From contig OZ024745.1 of assembly GCA_964016885.1 (NCBI GenBank), positions 130,448,001-130,512,000 on the forward strand: a stretch of DNA of 64,000 bases, in the 5' to 3' direction. The stretch comes from Eledone cirrhosa. Taxonomy: Eukaryota. Shown here one piece after another: positions 9,178 to 61,987 of the stretch (positions are counted from its first letter, which is position 1; the number at the start of each line of letters is the position of its first letter). The notes beneath the pieces are model-generated. The model did no database searches, was not told where the DNA came from, and saw nothing but the letters and a program-made list of their open reading frames with translations. A program made the translations under genes and the position numbers.

Positions 9178-10254
9178 CTAAGGCGGGTAAAATTCCCGAG
9201 ATCCATGGACGAGTTCTCTCCAGCGGTCTCTGTCCCTCATTATCGCTGCCATGTCCTGCGTCTCCAACAGACCAGTGTCTGTCCTTAGGGCATCAATATA
9301 CGTTAACCTTGGTCTTCCTTTTCTAGTGTGTCCATGTAGGGACTCCCAAAGGAGCACTGAGTGCAATGTCAACTCTGGATGTCGGTGAGCATGTTCAGCT
9401 AACCTCAGTCTCCTCTGTGTCACTTTTGAGCTGACTTTTGGGATGCTCCCATACAGCTCTGAGTTTTTCATCCTCAGTGTATACTGATTAATGTTCAGAG
9501 CCATCCTCAGCATTCTCGTGTAGCACCCATCCACCATCTGAGTGAGTTTCTTGGTCAGTGTCCAAGTCTCAGACCCATACAGCAGTACAGACTCCACTAC
9601 AGCAATGAAGAGGCGGATTTTCAGGTCTCTACGAAGGTCCGACCTCCACACCGATCTCAAGCTGTGGCACGCCGCCCAGGCCTTGCTCTTCCTCTCAACC
9701 ACATCTTCTTCCGTATTCCCAATCTTTGCTCCCAAATACAGGAAGCCCTCAACCAATTCTAGCGGCTTCCCGCCTACATTAGTGATCCCCTCTGGCTTCT
9801 CAACATTCTCTACCAGATATTTTGTTTTAGTCTCATTCATTATCAGCCCCACACTCATCGACACAGTCTCAACCTCCCGCATCAAATCCTCTGCCTCCTT
9901 CACTGTATTTGTCACCAAAACTATGTCGTCGGCAAATTCAGCATCCGATACCTTTTTCGCCCTAACTCTCCTGCTCTGAGCTGGTGCTACAGTAAAACCA
10001 GAGTCCTGGTGTTTCTCCAGTGCAAGGCGCATACAATAGTCCACTACGATGATAAAAAGGTAGGGAGCCAATGTATCCCCCTGGAGCAGTCCAGCTAGTA
10101 TCTCAAAGAACTCTGTCATCCCATCAGGTGTAATGACTTGGGCTTTGGTGTTGGTGTAGAGCAGTGATATCAGGTCCACTATCTTCTTGGGGATTCCATA
10201 AGCCTGTAAGATCTTCATCAGGCAGTAACGGTCCACAGAATCAAAGGCCTTCTT
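9178..10254 (-). mobile_element. 5'-truncated RTE-clade LINE, reverse transcriptase C-terminal part (uninterrupted frame)
   Basis: [40 protein letters not shown] and RRLRLA.H motifs; the N-terminal IY run of the ORF track is only the flanking (TA)n. Confidence 0.92.
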
Positions 10255-10255
10255 A

Positions 10256-10636
<381 letters not shown>

Positions 10637-17763: not shown

Positions 17764-17868
17764 AAACACAATCTTCGAGATAAGCGGCAAGCGCTCAATG
17801 GGCTAAAAGAAGACCAGAGCAATTAACATAAGTTATAAAGGCCAGATAAATGTAAACAGTGGTCGTTA
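17764..17868 (+). pseudogene. Penelope-like RT N-terminal fragment
   Basis: KHNLRDKRQALNGLKEDQS...VIK(A)-DKC-TVVV resembles PLE NL...ER.AL..LK.D..I.I..ADKG..VV; frameshifted. Confidence 0.55.
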
Positions 17869-18041
17869 AGCCATCAGCCACCAGAGCCAAAAAAAGTAAG
17901 CAAGCTAAACAGGTTAACAAAATATATATGTATATATATACATGAGTGTGTGTGTGTAAAAGGTAAATAGAAATAACAACACAATCGATACAGTATATGG
18001 AAGGAATATATAAGTTTAACGCTTGAAATAGGAGGAAGAGG

Positions 18042-21365: not shown

Positions 21366-21872
21366 GTTCTTTGAGTCTCAGTCATTGATGTTAGTTAACT
21401 GGAAAGTTTGTTGAAATGAATATCAAGCCACTACCTGCAGCCTCAGATATTCAGGACGTATCGGAGGGTTCTTGCTGTTCCCAGCAAGCATGCCTTTTGA
21501 AGTGTTCCAAAAAGCGAGGCGGGGCCAATTTTCTTTAACCATCCCTGGAAACTTTTTGAGATAGTCCCCAGTGCGCCTATGACAATCGGGACCACTTTGA
21601 CTTCATGGCAGTTCCAAATCCTTTTTACCTCCCACTTTAAGTCCTGGTATCGGTTAATTTTCTCCCTCTCCATTTCTTGCACTCTCGTGTCAAATGGGCA
21701 GGCCACATCCACAATCAGGCACGATCTTTTTTCTTTGTCCAAAACCACCAGGTCAGGTCTATTGTGTTTCAGTTTCTTGTCCGTCTGTATTCTAAAATCC
21801 CATAACACCTTCACCTGAGCGTTTTCTATCACCGACTCTGGCTTATGCTCAAACCACTTCTCAGAATGGTGA
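21366..21872 (-). mobile_element. 5'-truncated R4/Dong-clade retrotransposon: restriction-like endonuclease domain and 3'UTR
   Basis: VLWDFRIQTD..LKHNRPDLVVLDK....IVDVACP...EK..RYQDL...VVPIVIGALG..LQKACLLGTARTLR (stop at 21443); (TAA)n on both sides. Confidence 0.9.
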
Positions 21873-21915
21873 TTATTATTATTATTATTATTATCATTAT
21901 TATTATTATTATTAT

Positions 21916-22007
21916 TGGCTGTTGATTGGCAGTATTGGTAGAGCGTCAGGCACCATGCTTTGCAACACAAAGTTATGGCCCTTTACCTTCTGAGTTCAAA
22001 TCCCACT
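21916..22007 (+). mobile_element. SINE head, truncated
   Basis: gattggcagtattggtagag...gagttcaaatccca. Confidence 0.8.
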
Positions 22008-25292: not shown

Positions 25293-25450
25293 GCATATAT
25301 TTTGATTCTGTGAATATCTTTCATTTGTTAATATTTTGAATAATATTAAAAACTCCAGGAAAACCTTTTTGTTGAGTGCTCTTAATCTATTGTAAAATAG
25401 AATAAGTAATCAACGAACCATATTAATCTTTGGTCATATATATATACAGT

Positions 25451-28169: not shown

Positions 28170-28311
28170 AATAATTCTGAGAATTAGCCGTCGAAACGGC
28201 TTGAGCTCAGCCGTCGGGGTCTTACTGGTTCCTATTACCCACTCTACTACCCTAAGTATTGAGTACTTTGGTGCGTTATGGTCCACCTGGTTCCTTACCA
28301 CATTTCCTTCG

Positions 28312-29434: not shown

Positions 29435-29868
<434 letters not shown>

Positions 29869-33053: not shown

Positions 33054-33195
33054 CAAAGAGTTATTTAATTTGTTGGTTATTCAACAAATCTTATTATAAC
33101 AGATTCGAAGCACTCTACAGTATTCTTCTGGAGTATAATATCAATGATATTAATAAATGGAAACTATCCTTTATAAACCCTATTTATTTGATTAT
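32575..33195 (-). mobile_element. Family A element pieces separated by (TA)n
   Basis: HHR plus upstream region at 32575-32975; tail copy at 33051-33195. Confidence 0.7.
32624..32690 (-). ncRNA. Type I hammerhead (family A)
   Basis: TATTTTAT-CTGATGA-GGA C GTACTG/CAGTAC C TCT-GAAA-TATGTA-TA-ATAAAATA; 8-bp stem I. Confidence 0.85.
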
Positions 33196-39706: not shown

Positions 39707-39852
39707 TAACGAAGGAAGTGTGGTAAGGAACCAGATGGACCATAACGCACTAGAGTACTCAATACTTAGGGTAGGAGAGTGCGTAATAGGAAAAAGTTCA
39801 AGCCGTCGAAATGGGTTGAGCTCTGCCGCTGGGGTTTGAACTTGTTGTTCCT
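39707..39852 (-). mobile_element. Family B element, centre deleted
   Basis: Tail aacgaaggaagtgtggtaaggaacc... plus inverted half. Confidence 0.8.
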
Positions 39853-40024
39853 ATATATATATATAAATGTTATGCATTTCCGTAAAAAAAGGTAAGAGAA
39901 AGAACAGTGCTCAATGTATAGTACAGAGCTATTTCATTATATAGTAAACAACACAATATAATTATTCCATTACCAAAGGTTTCAGGAAATTAGACGATCC
40001 TTACAGAAATGTCCAGTTTGCCGT

Positions 40025-41367: not shown

Positions 41368-41874
<507 letters not shown>

Positions 41875-42719: not shown

Positions 42720-43466
42720 AGTTGTGTGTGTGTGTGTGTGTGTGGAGGGGGGTTATTTATTGCCATCATTTAGAAATCTATGTCTTCCGAGAATCTGGTA
42801 CATTGAAACTGTGGAACCAATGTTGTTTTGAAGGCTTTTTATTAAAATTGCACTTTCTTCTTTTTCTTCTTCTTCTCCTTTTGCAATGACCCTTCCATTG
42901 AACAATCAATGAATTTCGTAAGATGTGTACATAACAACAACAACAACAACAACAACAATAACAACTAATAATAATAATAATAATAATAATAATGATAACA
43001 ACGACAATGAATGATAATAGTAATGTTTTCTTATATTATATATCATATAAAATAATAATAATAATAATAACAATAATAATATATTTAACGGTAGTTGTGG
43101 TGGGAGGAAGTGATCGTGCTGATGAAGATGATGATGATGAGGATGATGATGATAATAGTGAATAATTAGATAAAACAATGCAGATGTACGTGAGGTATTT
43201 ACCGAAATTCCATGAAAACATTGTTATATAAATCTATTGTTTAGATAAATGTTTGTAATCAAAGGAAGGAGGACAGTAACAACAACAATGAAAATAATAA
43301 TATATAAAAAAACAAGAAGAAAAGTATAGCTGCCATCTTATTTTTCGTTTTGTCGTATTACCAAACACAAGTAAAGTGTACACACTTACACACTCTTCCG
43401 ACACACGGACTTAAACACCCAAAACCGTATTAAAATACTGAAATATAGACAAACAAATTTGATTTT

Positions 43467-46089
43467 ATGTGATGTATGTGATGTATGTGATGTATGTAAT
43501 GTATGTGATGTATGTGATGTGTGTGATGTATGTGATGTATGTGACGTATGTGATGTATGTGATGTATGTGATGTATGTGATGTATGTGATGTATGTGATG
43601 TAGGTAATGTATGTGATGTATGTGACGTATGTGATGTATGTGATGTATGTGACGTATGTGATGTATGTAATGTATGTGATGTATGTGATGTGTGTGATGT
43701 ATGTGATGTATGTGACGTATGTGATGTATGTGATGTATGTGATGTATGTGACGTATGTGACGTATGTGATGTATGTGATGTATGTGACGTATGTGATGTA
43801 TGTAATATATGTAATGTATGTAATGTATGTGATGTATGTAATGTATGTGATGTATGTAACGTATGTGATGTATGTGATGTATGTGACGTATGTGATGTAT
43901 GTAATGTATGTAATGTATGTGATGTATGAGATGTGTGTAATGTATGTAATGTATGTAATGTATGTAATGTATGTGACGTATGTAATGTATGTAATGTATG
44001 TAATGTATGTAATGTATGTAATGTATGTGATATATGTAATGTATGTGATGTATGTGATGTATATAATGTATGTAATGTATGTGATGTATGTGATGTATGT
44101 GACGTATGTGATGTATGTAATGTATGTAATGTATGTGATGTATGAGATGTGTGTAATGTATGTAATGTATGTAATGTATGTAATGTATGTGACGTATGTA
44201 ATGTATGTAATGTATGTAATGTATGTAATGTATGTAATGTATGTGATATATGTAATGCATGTGATGTATGTTATGTGTGTGATGTATGTGATGTATGTGA
44301 TGTATGTAATGTATGTAATGTATGTAATGTATGTAAAGTATGTGACGTATGTAATGTATGTAATGTATGTAATGTATGTAATGTATGTAATGTATGTGAC
44401 GTATGTAATGTATGTAATGTATGTGATGTATGTAATGTATGTGATGTATGTAATGTATGTGATGTGTGTGATGTATGTAATGTGTGTAATGTATGTAATG
44501 TATGTGATGTATGTGATGTGTGTGATGTATGTGATGTATGTGATGTATGTAATGTATGTAATGTATGTGACGTATGCAATGTATGTAATGTATGTAATGT
44601 ATGTAATGTATGTGAAGTGTGTGATGTATGTAATGTATGTAATGTATGTAATGTATGTGATGTATGTAATGTATGTGATGTGTGTGATGTATGTAATGTA
44701 TGTAATGTATGAGATGTATGTGATGTATGTGACGTATGTGATGTATGTAATGTATGTGATGTATGTGATGTATGTGATGTATGTGATGTATGTGATCTAT
44801 GTGATGTGTGTGATCTATGTAATGTATGTAATGTATGTAATGTATGTGATGTATGTGATGTGTGTGATGTATATAATGTATGTAATGTATGTAATGTATG
44901 TGACGTATGTAATGTATGTGATGTATGTAATGTATGAGATGTATGTGATGTATGTGATGTGTGTGATGTATGTAATGTATGTAATGTATGTGATGTATGT
45001 AATGTATGTAATGTATGTAATGTATGTGACGTATGTAATGTATGAAATGTATGAGTTGTATGTAATGTATGTAATGTATGCAATGTATGTAATGTATGTG
45101 ATATATGTGATGTATGTGATGTGTGTGATGTATGTAATGTATGTAATGTATGTAATGTATGTGACGTATGTAATGTATGTAATGTATGAGATGTATGTGA
45201 TGTATGTGACGTATGTGATGTATGTAATGTATGTGATGTATGTGATGTATGTGATGTATGTGACGTATGTAATGTATGTAATGTATGTAATGTATGTAAT
45301 GTATGTGACGTATGTAATGTATGTAATGTATGTAATGTATGTGATGTGTGTGATGTATGTGATGTATGTGATGTATGTTACGTATGTAATGTATGTGACG
45401 TATGTGATGTATGTCATGTATGTAATGTATGTGACGTACGTGATGTATGTGATGTATGTGATGTATGTGATGTATGTGATGTATGTGATGTATGTGATGT
45501 ATGTGACGTATGTAATGTATGTGATGTATGTAATGTATGTGACGTATGTAATATATGTGACGTATGTGATGTATGTGATGTATGTAATGTATGTGATGTA
45601 TGTGATGTATGTGACGTATGTGATGTATGTGATGTATGTAATGTATGTGATGTATGTAATGTATGTGACGTATGTGATGTATGTGATGTATGTAATGTAT
45701 GTGATGTATATGATGTATGTGATGTATGTAATATATGTGATGTATGTGATGTATGTGATGTATGTAATGTATGTGATGTATGTAATGTATGTGACGTATG
45801 TAATGTATGTGATGTATGTGATGTATGTGATGTATGTAATGTATGTGATGTATGTGATGTATGTGACGTATGTAATGTATGTGACGTATGTGATGTATGT
45901 GATGTATGTAATGTATGTAATGTATGTGACGTACGTGATGTATGTAATATATGTGACGTACGTGATGTATGTAATGTATGTGATGTATGTGACGTATGTA
46001 ATGTATGTGACGTATGTGATGTATGTGATGTATGTAATGTATGTAATCTATGTGACGTACGTGATGTATGTAATGTATGTGATGTATGT
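43467..46089. repeat. 2.6-kb 9-bp minisatellite (TATGTGATG / TATGTAATG / TATGTGACG)
   Basis: Direct reading; source of the 861-aa MYV ORF. Confidence 0.97.
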
Positions 46090-46209
46090 TTTGTTAATTA
46101 ATATTTTAATTTATACATTTTACAGCCTTCCCTATTCTTGCCTATATATTTATAGGCACGAGTATTTTGTTGCGTTTGAAATAGGGAAATAACACAAAGG
46201 ACAACGACA

Positions 46210-54835: not shown

Positions 54836-55025
54836 TAGGGTGTGGTACAATACCAGGGGGACCATAACCCACCAGAGTACTCGATACTTTGGGTAGTAGA
54901 GTGGCTAATATGTAAAGATTCAGGACCCCCGACGACTGAGCTTCGGCCGTTTCGACACCTAGATCTGAGGTCAGTTGTAGGTTTCGAAACGGCTAGAGCT
55001 CACCCGCCAGGGTCCTGAATCTTTT

Positions 55026-56242: not shown

Positions 56243-56304
<62 letters not shown>

Positions 56305-56309
<5 letters not shown>

Positions 56310-57223
56310 TATGAAGAGAGAAGAAACATTTAGATATAATTAGTAATAAAATGTATCATACCTAAACTGCTCCTAGATTCCTCGACTACGTAGTTTCGTG
56401 GCATAAACAAAAACAATACATCATAAAGATATAGAGTCCTTGCGAGGTCTGCCGACTTATCAAGAGGATACCTCATTTTACTAGCCCCAAGAACGCATCT
56501 ACACGACGTGAGAAAGAATCCCAAAAGGCGGAGGGGGAGGTAGTCACGCGATATAACGGTCGAGAAACAGAGCTAAGCCTCTTATAACCCCGAAGAAAAT
56601 ACCACGGAGGCGGAGGGGGTATTTATATCGAAGCCGTAGAAGAGGTGGTGAAGGAGACGAGAAGTATGAGTAATAGCAGCTTTCCAGCAGTCACCACACT
56701 TCAAAGATTACTCAACCAGAGGGAGTTATTAACAATATATTTAGAAACACACAGATACATGCGGACACACACATATACATGAATGCATCCACACCCAACC
56801 GTGAGTTAAGGGTGCCAACCTCACCGATGTTGCTCAATGAATGACTGGGACAGACCAATCCGGCTGAACCAGATTGAACCAGTATCAGAGTTAAAAATAC
56901 ATTATGAAGAGAGAAGAAACATTTAGATATTAGTAATAAAATGTATCATACCTAAACTGCTCCTAGATTCCTCGACTACGTAGTTTCGTGGCATAAACAA
57001 AAACTTTAGGTATGATACATTTTATTACTAATTATATCTAAATGTTTCTTCTCTCTTCATAATGTATTTTTAACTCTGATACTGGTTCAGTCTGGTTCAG
57101 CCGGATTGGTCTGTCCCAGTCATTCATTGAGCAACATCGGTGAGGTTGGCACCCTTAACTCACGGTTGGGTGTGGATGCATTCATGTATATGTGTGTGTC
57201 CGCATGTATCTGTGTGTTTCTAA

Positions 57224-57289: not shown

Positions 57290-58542
57290 AGAGAGAGGGA
57301 GAGAGAGGTGGTGAGAGAAAGTGCGAGGGAGAGAGAGAAATAATAAGGGAGAGGGTAAGAAAGATAGATAGATAGATAAATATTTTCCTTGTACATTATT
57401 GAGTGCGAACCACTTCGTTTTAAAAAGGTTATTTTCCATCAGCTTACATTCATTAGTTTCATGTAATACTTTATTTAACTATATTGAGGATACCCAGTAA
57501 TGAAATTTCTACAAATTAACCATTTGATTTTGGAACTGCCGTGTAAAATAAGCATATATACTTGCTATTTGAAGAAAATTAACTCCCTACTGTAAGAATC
57601 ATGAAGCGTACTCGTCTTATATTTGGAAACTTTGCAGAGATATTATTCATGTTAAGTCGTTATATGAAGAACTAATCACCCAGTGTACCCTATGTACTAA
57701 TATACATTTAAGACTTGTTCACAGATATATTCGCATAAATGTTATGCAACTATTTTCAGATAAAACTTCATAAACCGTCTGTTATAGTGTTTAGGGTATA
57801 ATTAGAGCTTTTTATTCTAACTATTTTTGCCTGGTCTCTTAACTATTCTGTATAGAAATTTCATTAACCCATTAGAATAGGGGCTAGACCTTCCCAATAT
57901 TTTCTATTTGAACTCAGAAATTGCATTCATTTTTTTTTTTATTAATCTTGAAAATCCTGGGTAATTTCGTGAAATTCTCCTTGTCCGTGTAACTGAATGA
58001 AGTGCCATAGTTAAAAAACATATTTCTAAATTTTCGTTCAGGCATTTTGTATTTTCGTCTGATGAGTGCATACCATAAATAGAGTAATATAACTAACGAG
58101 TTTGAAAGAGTTCTATGATTCTAGTCATCGTCTGCAGTATAACACAGAGATAAACTATTGTGAATGCAACATCTATGAATTAATCCAGTAGGAGACAAGA
58201 AAACATTATATATGCAAGTCATTCTAGGCGATTAACTTTAGCTTTCATAAATAATGTGCTTATATGCAGCAACTTATTTACTATGGATCTACAGTGACTG
58301 GTCAAATATCAACAGCTTATTGAAATACTTCCAGCTTTTCAATTTACTAAGCGCAAAGACATATCCCAATACTCAATCTTTTCTTAACCCCATATATCTT
58401 ACCCTGGATTGTCTCTGTAATATTTCAATAGGGCGAAGAGCGTATATGATATGCTCTTCAAGCGACGCCTAGCTGAGACCGCTTGGAGCTGCCGTCCTGA
58501 TGTTACCATTCTATACCCATTCTGCATCATTCCATGCACTGC

Positions 58543-58580
<38 letters not shown>

Positions 58581-58584
<4 letters not shown>

Positions 58585-59512
58585 TGTAGATGACACAGTA
58601 TTGGCAGCGAACTCTAAGGAGTAAATACAGCACCTCATGAATAAACTCTCGAGGGCCTGCCAGGAACTTAACTTAAACATAGTCTGAGAAAAACCAATGT
58701 ACTGGTCGAAAGTGTCAAGCACCCCCTCACGCCCACCCCCCATCATCATTAACAAGTACGAGCTTGAGTTGATCCATGAATTATTTGACTCCATCGTCAC
58801 TGACAACCTCTCCCTGGACCCCGAGCTCAGCAGGAGAGTTGAACGAGCAGCCTCCACATTTGTCAGGCTGACAAAGAGAGTCTGGGAGAACAGAAAACTA
58901 CAAACACCAAGTTTGCTGTCTACAAGGTGTGTGTCCTCAGCACACTACTTTATGACAGTGAGGCATGGAGCATCTACTCAGGAGCGAAGTCTCAATGTCT
59001 TCCACCTTCGTAGCCTGAGACGCATTTTGGATATGAAGTGGACCGACATGATCATTAACACTATAGTCCTAAACCGCGCCAGGATACCCAGCATATATAC
59101 CCTGCTGTTTGCGACGTCTGCACTGTCTCGGCCACGTACATCGTATGCCAGAGGAGAGGATCCCAAAGGACATAGTGTATGGAGAACTGACCACCGGCGC
59201 AAGAATCCGTAGACGATGTCATCATCGTTTCAAAGAGGGTTGCAAGAGGGATATGAAGTCAATATACTTGAACACGGAGAGGTGGGAGGAGGTCAGTAAT
59301 GAGCGCCCAGAACAGAGACGAGTACTGCACAAAAGGATGGAGCAAAGGGAGTAGAATCTGACCACAACAGCACCGGAAGAGAGCATCTGCATCTGCAGTT
59401 GCTGTATACAGGACTGCCACTCCCGCGTGGGACTGTACTGCGACAGCAGACATTGCCCCACCATCAGCCGCTGACACAAAGTTCCCCAGGAGAGAGTCTA
59501 TGGTCTTTTGAG
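58581..59512 (+). pseudogene. 5'-truncated RTE (BovB-like) LINE, degenerate
   Basis: DDTVLAA, SLRKTNVL, F.RLTKRVWEN, FHLRSLRRIL, RRLH.LGHVHRM..ERIPKDI.YGEL and a terminal C..C...CHSRVGLY...RHC zinc-finger-like motif; frameshifts. Confidence 0.9.
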
Positions 59513-59594: not shown

Positions 59595-59846
59595 GTGTGT
59601 GTGTGTTGTGTGTATGCTCTCAAAAGATTATATATATATATATATATTATATATATATATATATATATAAAATATATAAGATCAAAAGATGGTTAAAAGA
59701 GTTCCATGTATTTTATTATGCGCATTTCAAAAACAAATATCATTATGCAATAACACACTTGTGAATAGTGCAGTTTTAAATCAACATATGTTGATTTAAA
59801 ACTGCACTATTCACAAGTGTGTTTTAACCTTCATATCATGTCTCCC

Positions 59847-59917
59847 TATTTTATCTGATGAAAACGCAAATGTTATTGCATGATGATATTTGTTTTTGAA
59901 ATGCGCATAATAAAATA
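59847..59917 (+). ncRNA. Type I hammerhead (family A)
   Basis: TATTTTAT-CTGATGA-AAA C GCAAATGTTAT/ATGATATTTGT T TTT-GAAA-TGCGCA-TA-ATAAAATA. Confidence 0.88.
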
Positions 59918-60046
59918 CATGGAACTCTTTTAAACATCTTTTGATCTTATATATTATTATTTATACTCCAGTTCTACAAACTGTAGAGTACTTCTTATCC
60001 GATATCTGCATTGCTTTATTGTACTACAATAAAACTCACCTCCTAC

Positions 60047-60101
<55 letters not shown>

Positions 60102-60250: not shown

Positions 60251-60441
60251 AGGAACGAGTAGGACCCCGACGGCTGAGCTCAAGCCGTTTCGACGGCTAA
60301 TTCTGGACGCAGAATTAGCCGTCGAAACGGCTTGAGCTCAGCCGTGGGGTCCTACTCGTTCCTAGTACCCACTCTACTACCCTAAGTATTGAGTACTTCG
60401 GTGCGTTATGGTCCATCTGGTTCCTTACCACATTTCCTTCG

Positions 60442-60702: not shown

Positions 60703-60788
<86 letters not shown>

Positions 60789-61844
60789 GGAGGTGAGTTT
60801 TATTGTAGTACAATAAAGCAATGCAGATATCGGATAAGAAGCACTCTACAGTTTGTAGGACTGGAGTCCTACAAACTGTAGAGTGCTTCTTATACATAAT
60901 ATATACATAATATACATAATATATAAGATAAAAAGATGGTTAAAAGAGTTCCATGTATTTTATTATGCGCATTTCAAAGTTATTTATTTTTCAAAGTTAT
61001 TTATCATACATTATATAATACTTGTTACACATTCTATATCACTCCTATTTAACACTTCCCTTTCTTCCTTTTCCTTTTCTTTTCTTTTTCTTTTAATTTC
61101 TAACCCCTAATCTGTACCTTTTCTCACTGTGCCTAACATTGAAACAATTATTACATAATACAATATATTCTTACTTTATATCACCTTGAAAAAATCCTTC
61201 GTAAACAAACATTTTTTTTGACGTTAGATATTCATCCTCAATTCATTATTTTTTTCTCCCTTTCATCTAACTTACTCATGCTCATCTCACAATATATCCT
61301 TACTTACATTACTTGTGTTTTTTTAATAATTCATGTCAACATTTTCTTTCTATCCCTTAAATATTATTCTTAATACATATTAACATTTTCTTTCTATCGC
61401 ACATATTATTAAACCCTTAAATATTATTCTTAATACATATTAACAATTTCTTTTCATCGCACATATTATTAAACCCTTCAATATACAAACCTTAACTTTA
61501 CATCATTTTTTTCTCTTCGTTAATTTTCAAATTCTTTTAATTTATACATTATCTTCCAACGGTTTTTCAACCTCTCTATGTAAAACAATATATTTTTCAC
61601 AGTTATAAAAGCTATCTCTCTCTCTATATCACCCATCTCTCCTCCTATCTCATCCTTCCTCATTATACTCCTCCCCCTCCACTTTTTACTCTCATCTCCT
61701 CCTCTTTTTCATCCTTTCCAACCCCCCCCCCCCTCAAAACATTTTTTTCCCCAATATCACACATCAATCTAAAACTACTTTTCATATGTTGATTTAAAAC
61801 TGCACTATCCACAAGTGTGTTTTAACCTTCATATCATGTCTTCC

Positions 61845-61915
61845 TATTTTATCTGATGAAAACACAAATATTATTGCATGATGATATTTGTTTTTGAAAT
61901 GCGCATAATAAAATA
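61845..61915 (+). ncRNA. Type I hammerhead (family A)
   Basis: As 59847, with two G-U pairs replaced by A-U in stem II (ACAAATATTAT). Confidence 0.88.
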
Positions 61916-61945
61916 CATGGAACTCTTTTAACCATCTTTTGATCT

Positions 61946-61987
<42 letters not shown>

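Follow-up and report, generated by a model that had tools for sequence, protein, structure and literature searches.

Most Hydra-clade families of Penelope-like retrotransposons (PLEs) carry a small predicted bulged RNA hairpin twice: the first copy, H1, opens the one-sided PLE tail, and the second, H2, follows the tail and precedes the ORF. The element family is known; the twin hairpin is a clade-wide new RNA motif within this known transposon group. Its function as an RNA signal that positions the reverse transcriptase (RT) is likely, on the footprint that it has left in the genome. In what follows, the window is the whole stretch of Eledone cirrhosa DNA that was analysed, 64 kb in length.

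The bulged hairpin

In full the motif reads N-CUC-Y[helix]R-UN-GAG-N'-RCU, which is wider than the form first described. A first-pass annotation of the window had named eight sites, and all eight exist as ACTC-helix-TN-GAGT, the coordinates given for those on the minus strand being the low ends of the spans in Table 1. Its description of the outer four base pairs as constant did not survive: the outermost pair is A-U, G-C or U-A, compensated every time, and it is the CUC/GAG pairs that are invariant. The GCTC/GAGC form, the commonest outside the E. cirrhosa genome, had been overlooked, as had the second copy, H2, and the register of the hairpin relative to the short end. An outer mismatch is present in the hairpin of the L132 family, and variant hairpins of the form GTTC/GAAC in L349, read by eye, represent a compensated change in the otherwise invariant core. 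Domains of 50-104 nt lie inside the hairpin loop, with the bulged base kept, in L125, L127, L169, L215, L091 and L110.

Abundance was assessed in 60 evenly placed 10-kb stretches (600 kb) of the 3.0-Gb genome, with at least three inner pairs required. The motif is more frequent than background, with 42 matches; ten block-wise dinucleotide shuffles yielded 2-8 each, and putting the same four letters into the 11 alternative orders yielded 2-19. The 2-nt 3' bulge had been seen correctly as a constant: bulges of 0, 1, 2, 3 and 4 nt gave 11, 12, 42, 4 and 3 matches, respectively, and a length of 2 nt alone is enriched. The placement of the hairpin shortly before (TA)n holds for most true matches, which lie 33-91 nt before a (TA)n run in the 600-kb sample, and fails for the site at 56710, which is H2 of a family E tandem unit. 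The hammerhead said to lie upstream is incomplete at several sites, with its 3' half only kept at 28241, 60371 and 54879 and the cleavage-site strand only at 33112.

Thermodynamic stability was rejected as the sole identifier of the motif, isolated hairpins being not clearly above shuffles. The eight cited hairpins fold weakly in isolation (-2.3 to -7.1 kcal/mol, z -0.35 to -1.91), that at 29711 does not adopt the drawn fold, and in sequence context competing folds win for families D, E and G and for L110 and L097. Rfam held no relevant family for either the 64-kb window or the 601-nt pLTR region, returning only microsatellite-driven miRNA noise.

The features of the window are collected in Table 1. 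Tandem copies of family A elsewhere reach the long end and then, after 7 nt, H2. The rearranged family A copy at 60785-60900 contains a local fold-back within H1 and short direct repeats, which suggests template switching at the hairpin. A parent ORF was looked for and not found for the hairpin family at 17793..17820. Between 17600 and 18200 (minus), a hairpin-bearing family is nested inside the terminal (TA)n of a Neptune/Nematis-type element. The window also holds LINE-like RT and endonuclease fragments, classed by eye and unrelated to the hairpins, at 9178-10392 (-), 21443-21982 (-) and 58399-59212, and, at 43330-46100, a ~2.7-kb array of a 9-nt tandem repeat with strong strand skew.

Table 1. 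Hairpins and associated features of the 64-kb window
Position	Strand	Feature	Remarks
17793..17820	-	GCTC/GAGC hairpin of another hammerhead family	
25352..25377	+	H1 of family B2	hammerhead core 25234; inverted short arm with core 25123 (minus)
28241..28264	+	H1 of family C	
29711..29729	-	H1 of family D	hammerhead core 29795 (minus)
33112..33134	-	H1 of family B1	
39757..39780	-	H1 of family C	second inner pair broken
39909..39929	-	GCTC/GAGC hairpin	43 nt before (TA)n; no family label
41596..41620	+	H1 of family C	one 5'-strand change (AATC)
41802..41825	+	H1 of family C	tail-only fragment; absent from the first-pass site list
54879..54902	-	H1 of family C variant	
56710..56726	-	H2 of family E	8 nt after the long end of E
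56832..56891	-	H1 of family E	ACTC...GAGC, outer A-C mismatch, 50-nt inner domain; 8 nt after the short end of E
57073-57132	+	inverted copy of family E H1	
59670..59788	-	inverted 5'-truncated arm of the 59965 insertion	stops at short end, ~9 nt before expected H1 start; fold-back point approximate
59847..59917	+	minimal type I hammerhead, family A	predicted cut between 59909 and 59910, 55 nt before H1
59956..60048	+	one-sided tail	short end to long end, then (TA)n
59965..59989	+	H1 of family A (Hydra-clade PLE)	opens the tail
60371..60394	+	H1 of family C	inverted short arm from ~60251, stops 8 nt before H1
60843..60867	-	H1 of second family A copy	locally rearranged
61845..61950	+	family A copy with hammerhead	ends at short end, no H1

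The carrier elements

Judged from their sequences, the window copies derive from Hydra-clade PLEs truncated at the 5' end, and most of them are remnants of autonomous elements rather than retrozymes. They lie within (TA)n, an inverted arm is frequent, and the extension is confined to one side, an architecture known for PLEs (PMC8557442). Family A leads into an endonuclease ~1 kb upstream of its hammerhead, the endonuclease standing at the end of a 573-aa frame, and families B1, B2 and D run on into ORF starts. Family C is young, with intact 717-aa ORFs in head-to-tail arrays of 3.53-3.54-kb units (L171-L190, L281-L283). The presence of the hairpin in the pLTRs of autonomous PLEs, a check proposed at the outset, is thereby borne out. 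The hammerhead core, a ribozyme predicted by reading of the sequence, is canonical in A, B1, B2 and D and variant in C and E; in family C the non-canonical core is TTGAGAAG or TTGATAAG.

Sequence motifs in families A and C place the RT before a C-terminal GIY-YIG-type endonuclease in a single ORF; a Pfam scan of the 717-aa ORF of family C identified no family, and a PDB sequence search with the Hydra profile gave nothing meaningful. The linker CxCX5C, together with CxxC and CxH around a conserved E and N, reads CNCPVKNKC, CNLC and CLH in A and CNCPDRSIC, CNLC and CKH in C. On inspection the CCHH motif is absent from the endonucleases of A and C, and the internal cysteine pair is present in the Neptune-type endonucleases compared. 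RLRWR in C and B1, and RLRWI in A, are a near match to the Hydra N-terminal RWK, and DKT is present in all three. With these features, the lack of CCHH among them, the proteins fit the definition of the Hydra clade, and the hairpin-bearing families are inserted into (TA)n. Elements of the Hydra clade with a C-terminal endonuclease (EN+), as described by Craig et al. in 2021 (PMC8557442), agree with those here in protein motifs, in having a hammerhead, in their (TA)n targets, in the 5'-truncated arms in inverted orientation and in a tail confined to one side. Tails measure ~55-165 nt here, from the H1-H2 spacing, as against 30-40 bp there. By eye, the hairpin is clear in three of the six consensi of that study (with two copies at the start of Hydra-1_Ajap), present as a variant in two and not seen in Hydra-1_Obim; the accessible text does not mention it.

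The families that share the hairpin had been thought otherwise unrelated. All those linked to an ORF belong to the Hydra clade, ten families of the same genome having proteins 33-54% identical to that of family C over the N-terminal and RT region, and the motif is therefore inherited; convergence among unrelated families was rejected on this ground. The hairpin families are thus best taken as relatives with diverged UTRs. The RT tree comprised own-genome and metagenome sequences only, without a named reference or outgroup. Family E, a non-coding and partly tandem unit of ~590 nt, has both hairpins, and its hammerhead core (TTGATAA) is a variant one (56250-57200 minus; L108, L056). A parent ORF was looked for and not found, and from its sequence organization we would call the family retrozyme-like.

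Two hairpins flank the tail

When 1077 sequence ends adjoining (TA)n were clustered, each family showed a short end paired with a long one. Since the tail is the stretch between these two copy ends, it begins with H1. In family E, one hairpin lies 8 nt after each of the two ends, and this arrangement, with a published consensus that has two hairpins, led to the prediction that H2 follows the long end in other families also, where it was then sought. It was located 6-9 nt after the long end in A, C, B2, B1 and five more ORF-anchored families. In family A it follows the long end at two loci. The search in family C gave 362 matches, against none in the control, and the 3' strand, which lay outside the search pattern, was intact in 18 of 20 loci. 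For B2 there were 17 matches, with H2 present in 12 of 15 loci, and for B1 85 matches, with H2 in 10 of 15. In family D the search was near background (57 matches vs 28), and the continuation has a reduced H2, a 4-bp stem without the bulge; the long end is still in register. H2 is missing from copies that stop at the long end and would consequently have to act on the template. The apparent motif of one end cluster (C47) was discarded, being hammerhead stem I of family E.

Copy ends keep a fixed register to the hairpins

Nine natural copies served as the references for placing 240 copy ends adjoining (TA)n. Of these, 216 are found 3-20 nt on the 5' side of one of the hairpins, usually at a distance of 5-10 nt, with the qualification that many of the 240 come from loci picked by queries containing an end and that TA microhomology blurs positions by a few bases. 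In the unselected sample together with the window, 52 of 58 ends fall at -20 to -3 of H1 or H2. These intervals account for 11% of the reference length and for 59 of its 298 TA dinucleotides (20%); the remaining 24 of the 240 ends lie outside them.

Inverted insertions pair one long (H2) end with one short (H1) end in 59 of 60 distinct cases. The unselected set gave 20 of 20, its ends overall being 48 long and 41 short. Independent choice of the two ends would produce long-plus-short pairs in about half of insertions, and 20 of 20 would then have a probability near 1e-6. Among 30 endonuclease-anchored copies of family A, 14 end short, 10 end long and 6 have no end in view. The occurrence of both end types on such copies implies that long cDNAs start from both sites.

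Metagenome loci and covariation

A profile of 115 Hydra proteins retrieved 77 metagenome loci, of which 43 were counted, since they contained the ORF start and a 5' flank no shorter than 90 nt, and 34 were left out. The strict pattern was present in 31 of the 43 flanks (antisense 0, shuffles 0-3). A relaxed pattern found at least one hairpin in 34 flanks and two in 24, compared with 0-4 in shuffles and with eight flanks holding one each in the antisense control. The spacing of the twins is 55-83 nt, one overlapping call aside. The other nine flanks are without the motif, and some of them resemble, by eye, non-element DNA. Where 5' and 3' copies share one metagenome contig, the one on the 3' side breaks off a few nucleotides short of a hairpin.

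The claim that the inner helix covaries was upheld by compensatory changes in these contigs. Taken with no pairing filter, the first inner pair of 58 unique hairpins is C-G in 35, U-A in 17, U-G in 3 and A-G in 3, and is thus formed in 55 of 58, against a mean of 44.7 and a maximum of 51 in 2000 shuffles. Inner pairs 2-3 are biased towards pairing, since they were used in choosing candidate 5' strands. Switches between C-G and U-A separate close relatives in at least four places on the tree, as read by eye, and in one clade (L319, L320) both hairpins have an outer U-A. On 32 hand-picked motif-bearing rows, RNAalifold recovered the motif structure, and 95.7% of alignment cells pair, as opposed to 21-56% in slid controls. 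A covariation signal is impossible at the invariant CUC/GAG pairs, and GAGYRCU is conserved as sequence. Compensatory changes on independent branches, the mark of a structured RNA motif, are what these alignments indicate. The metagenome hairpins contain 13 G-U and 2 A-C combinations, an excess that favours a structure acting in the sense-strand RNA; the same test within the E. cirrhosa genome is weak, with 8 G-U vs 4 A-C in 35 pattern-selected hairpins.

Mechanism

The first-pass annotation had proposed a cis-acting RNA signal, and this general idea is strengthened by the covariation, the sense polarity, the fixed end register and the presence in pLTRs. We propose that the hairpin probably binds the RT-endonuclease and sets the start of reverse transcription ~5-10 nt 5' of itself, where the UA-rich linker could pair with the nicked (TA)n primer. 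A more elaborate version, which we put forward tentatively and at somewhat less than even credence, has one dimeric RT-endonuclease on both hairpins of one transcript, each hairpin being the ruler for a cDNA start on opposite target strands. On the general proposal, a transcript through the pLTR into the next ORF would fold both hairpins, and two RT active sites, possibly of a protein dimer, would hold one each. Each site would prime from a nick in one strand of the (TA)n target, aided by the UA-rich linker before the hairpin, and the two cDNAs from opposite strands would yield a fold-back insertion with the tail on one side only. For PAc, a PLE of the Poseidon clade, in vitro work placed initiation at two positions inside the RNA, with the tail lying between them (Frangieh et al. 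2024, PMC11167929); both DNA strands undergo extension, RNA located 3' of these starts is needed, and the study predicts a dimer. PAc and the hairpin elements belong to different clades, Poseidon and Hydra, and the dimer step leans on the prediction for the former, not the latter.

The copy ends could instead be cut points, if the hairpins formed in single-stranded cDNA or donor DNA and the GIY-YIG endonuclease, or a host nuclease, recognised them and trimmed a longer cDNA at a set distance. Endonuclease-mediated resolution is the origin that PMC8557442 gives for the tail, the Penelope endonuclease of Drosophila virilis requires tail DNA (as cited in PMC11167929), and staggered processing would fit the fixed register and the long-plus-short pairing equally well. 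We nevertheless consider trimming unlikely: G-U prevails over A-C on the sense strand, inner domains of 6 to 104 nt are ill-suited to a double-stranded DNA site, copies of more than 1.4 kb show both end types, and internal initiation on RNA has been demonstrated directly for a related clade (PMC11167929). The register could also be explained without internal initiation if the hairpins directed processing of RNA, whether by placing a cut or 3' terminus 5-10 nt ahead of themselves or by giving rise to two RNA species, with the RT starting at 3' ends in the manner of LINEs. Such elements already carry a predicted self-cleaving hammerhead 55-100 nt upstream of the hairpin. However, two independent RNA species would give the long-plus-short combination only about half of the time, rather than in 20 of 20 unselected cases, and the internal starts of PMC11167929 were on unprocessed RNA, which makes this decidedly improbable in our view.

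We attach very little weight to a further reading, in which the hairpins have another RNA role, whether in RNP assembly, in hammerhead folding or in translating the ORF downstream of H2, and the ends arise through microhomology between UA-rich sequence that chances to adjoin them and the (TA)n target. The linkers are indeed rich in UA, and most metagenome loci have 35-65 nt between H2 and the ORF, but the intervals 5' of the hairpins leave outside them 80% of reference TA dinucleotides and just 10% of ends, and the register is kept across families without alignable flanks.

How PLEs choose a start site and come by a one-sided tail is an open question, the in vitro study having mapped the starts and not, in its accessible text, the RNA determinant (PMC11167929). 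With a twin hairpin at fixed register, start-site choice becomes testable by a few point mutants. The hairpin is, furthermore, an annotation marker for Hydra elements and their non-coding dependants, and it bears on template handling by the sister enzymes of telomerase. The dimer reading, if true, would explain both the PLE tail and the inverted architecture and define the signal that retrozymes borrow; it would also provide two transferable RNA handles of 20 nt each for target-primed reverse transcription that starts internally and on both strands.

Relation to known systems

Hepadnavirus epsilon, the 3' stem-loops of LINEs and SINEs and the R2 3' UTR are small cis-acting stems, sometimes bulged, that select a template for the RT of the element concerned. 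They are present in single copy, at or near the RNA end or templating from a bulge, whereas the PLE hairpins come as two copies that flank the tail, with an internal start upstream of each.

The template boundary and recognition elements of telomerase RNA (PMC5855555) are like the hairpin in that they adjoin the template, are bound by an RT of the sister clade and fix the bases that are copied. The telomerase boundary element, however, lies 5' of the template and stops synthesis, whereas the PLE hairpin lies 3' of the first copied base and occurs twice; no tested sequence or structure is common to the two.

Metazoan non-LTR retrozymes are non-coding tandem units, each with a type I hammerhead, and form circular RNA (PMC7229834; bioRxiv 10.64898/2026.07.22.740005). 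Family E, a partial tandem with a predicted hammerhead of variant core, keeps both hairpins, as expected of a PLE-mobilised parasite, and a cis signal for the mobilisation of retrozymes by PLEs is not named in the accessible parts of either source. No published description of the twin hairpin was found in the openly accessible literature that was searched.

Other PLE clades

Neptune-, Nematis- and Poseidon-type elements of the E. cirrhosa genome, taken as controls, have no in-register motif in 36 segments from ~8 families; what they contain is one site that lacks the closing Y-R pair, encountered twice, and another in antisense sequence. The control is partial for family H, whose tail was not found. 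A motif in this Neptune/Nematis-type family was considered and rejected, the junction at 17925 being a nested insertion and the hairpin family having its own upstream hammerhead-like region. In the accessible part of the Naiad and Chlamys consensi (PMC8557442 supplement), six 9-mers of the 3' strand TNGAGYACT gave three chance-like matches, none with the 5' strand in the passage shown, and line breaks or variants may hide others; the same six 9-mers gave four matches in the six published Hydra consensi.

The Neptune-type families (L167, L031, L042, L050, L057, L058, L161) have in common ACTCGTGT, ~9 nt after the short end. In L167 (minus, 604-650 oriented), ACTCGTGT is predicted to pair with CACACGAG just past the long end. 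The fold of L161 did not show this helix, which in L167 is single and unbulged, spans the tail and has a CUC/GAG core. On these structure predictions, the ACTCGTGT/CACACGAG helix may be the Neptune counterpart of the twin hairpins.
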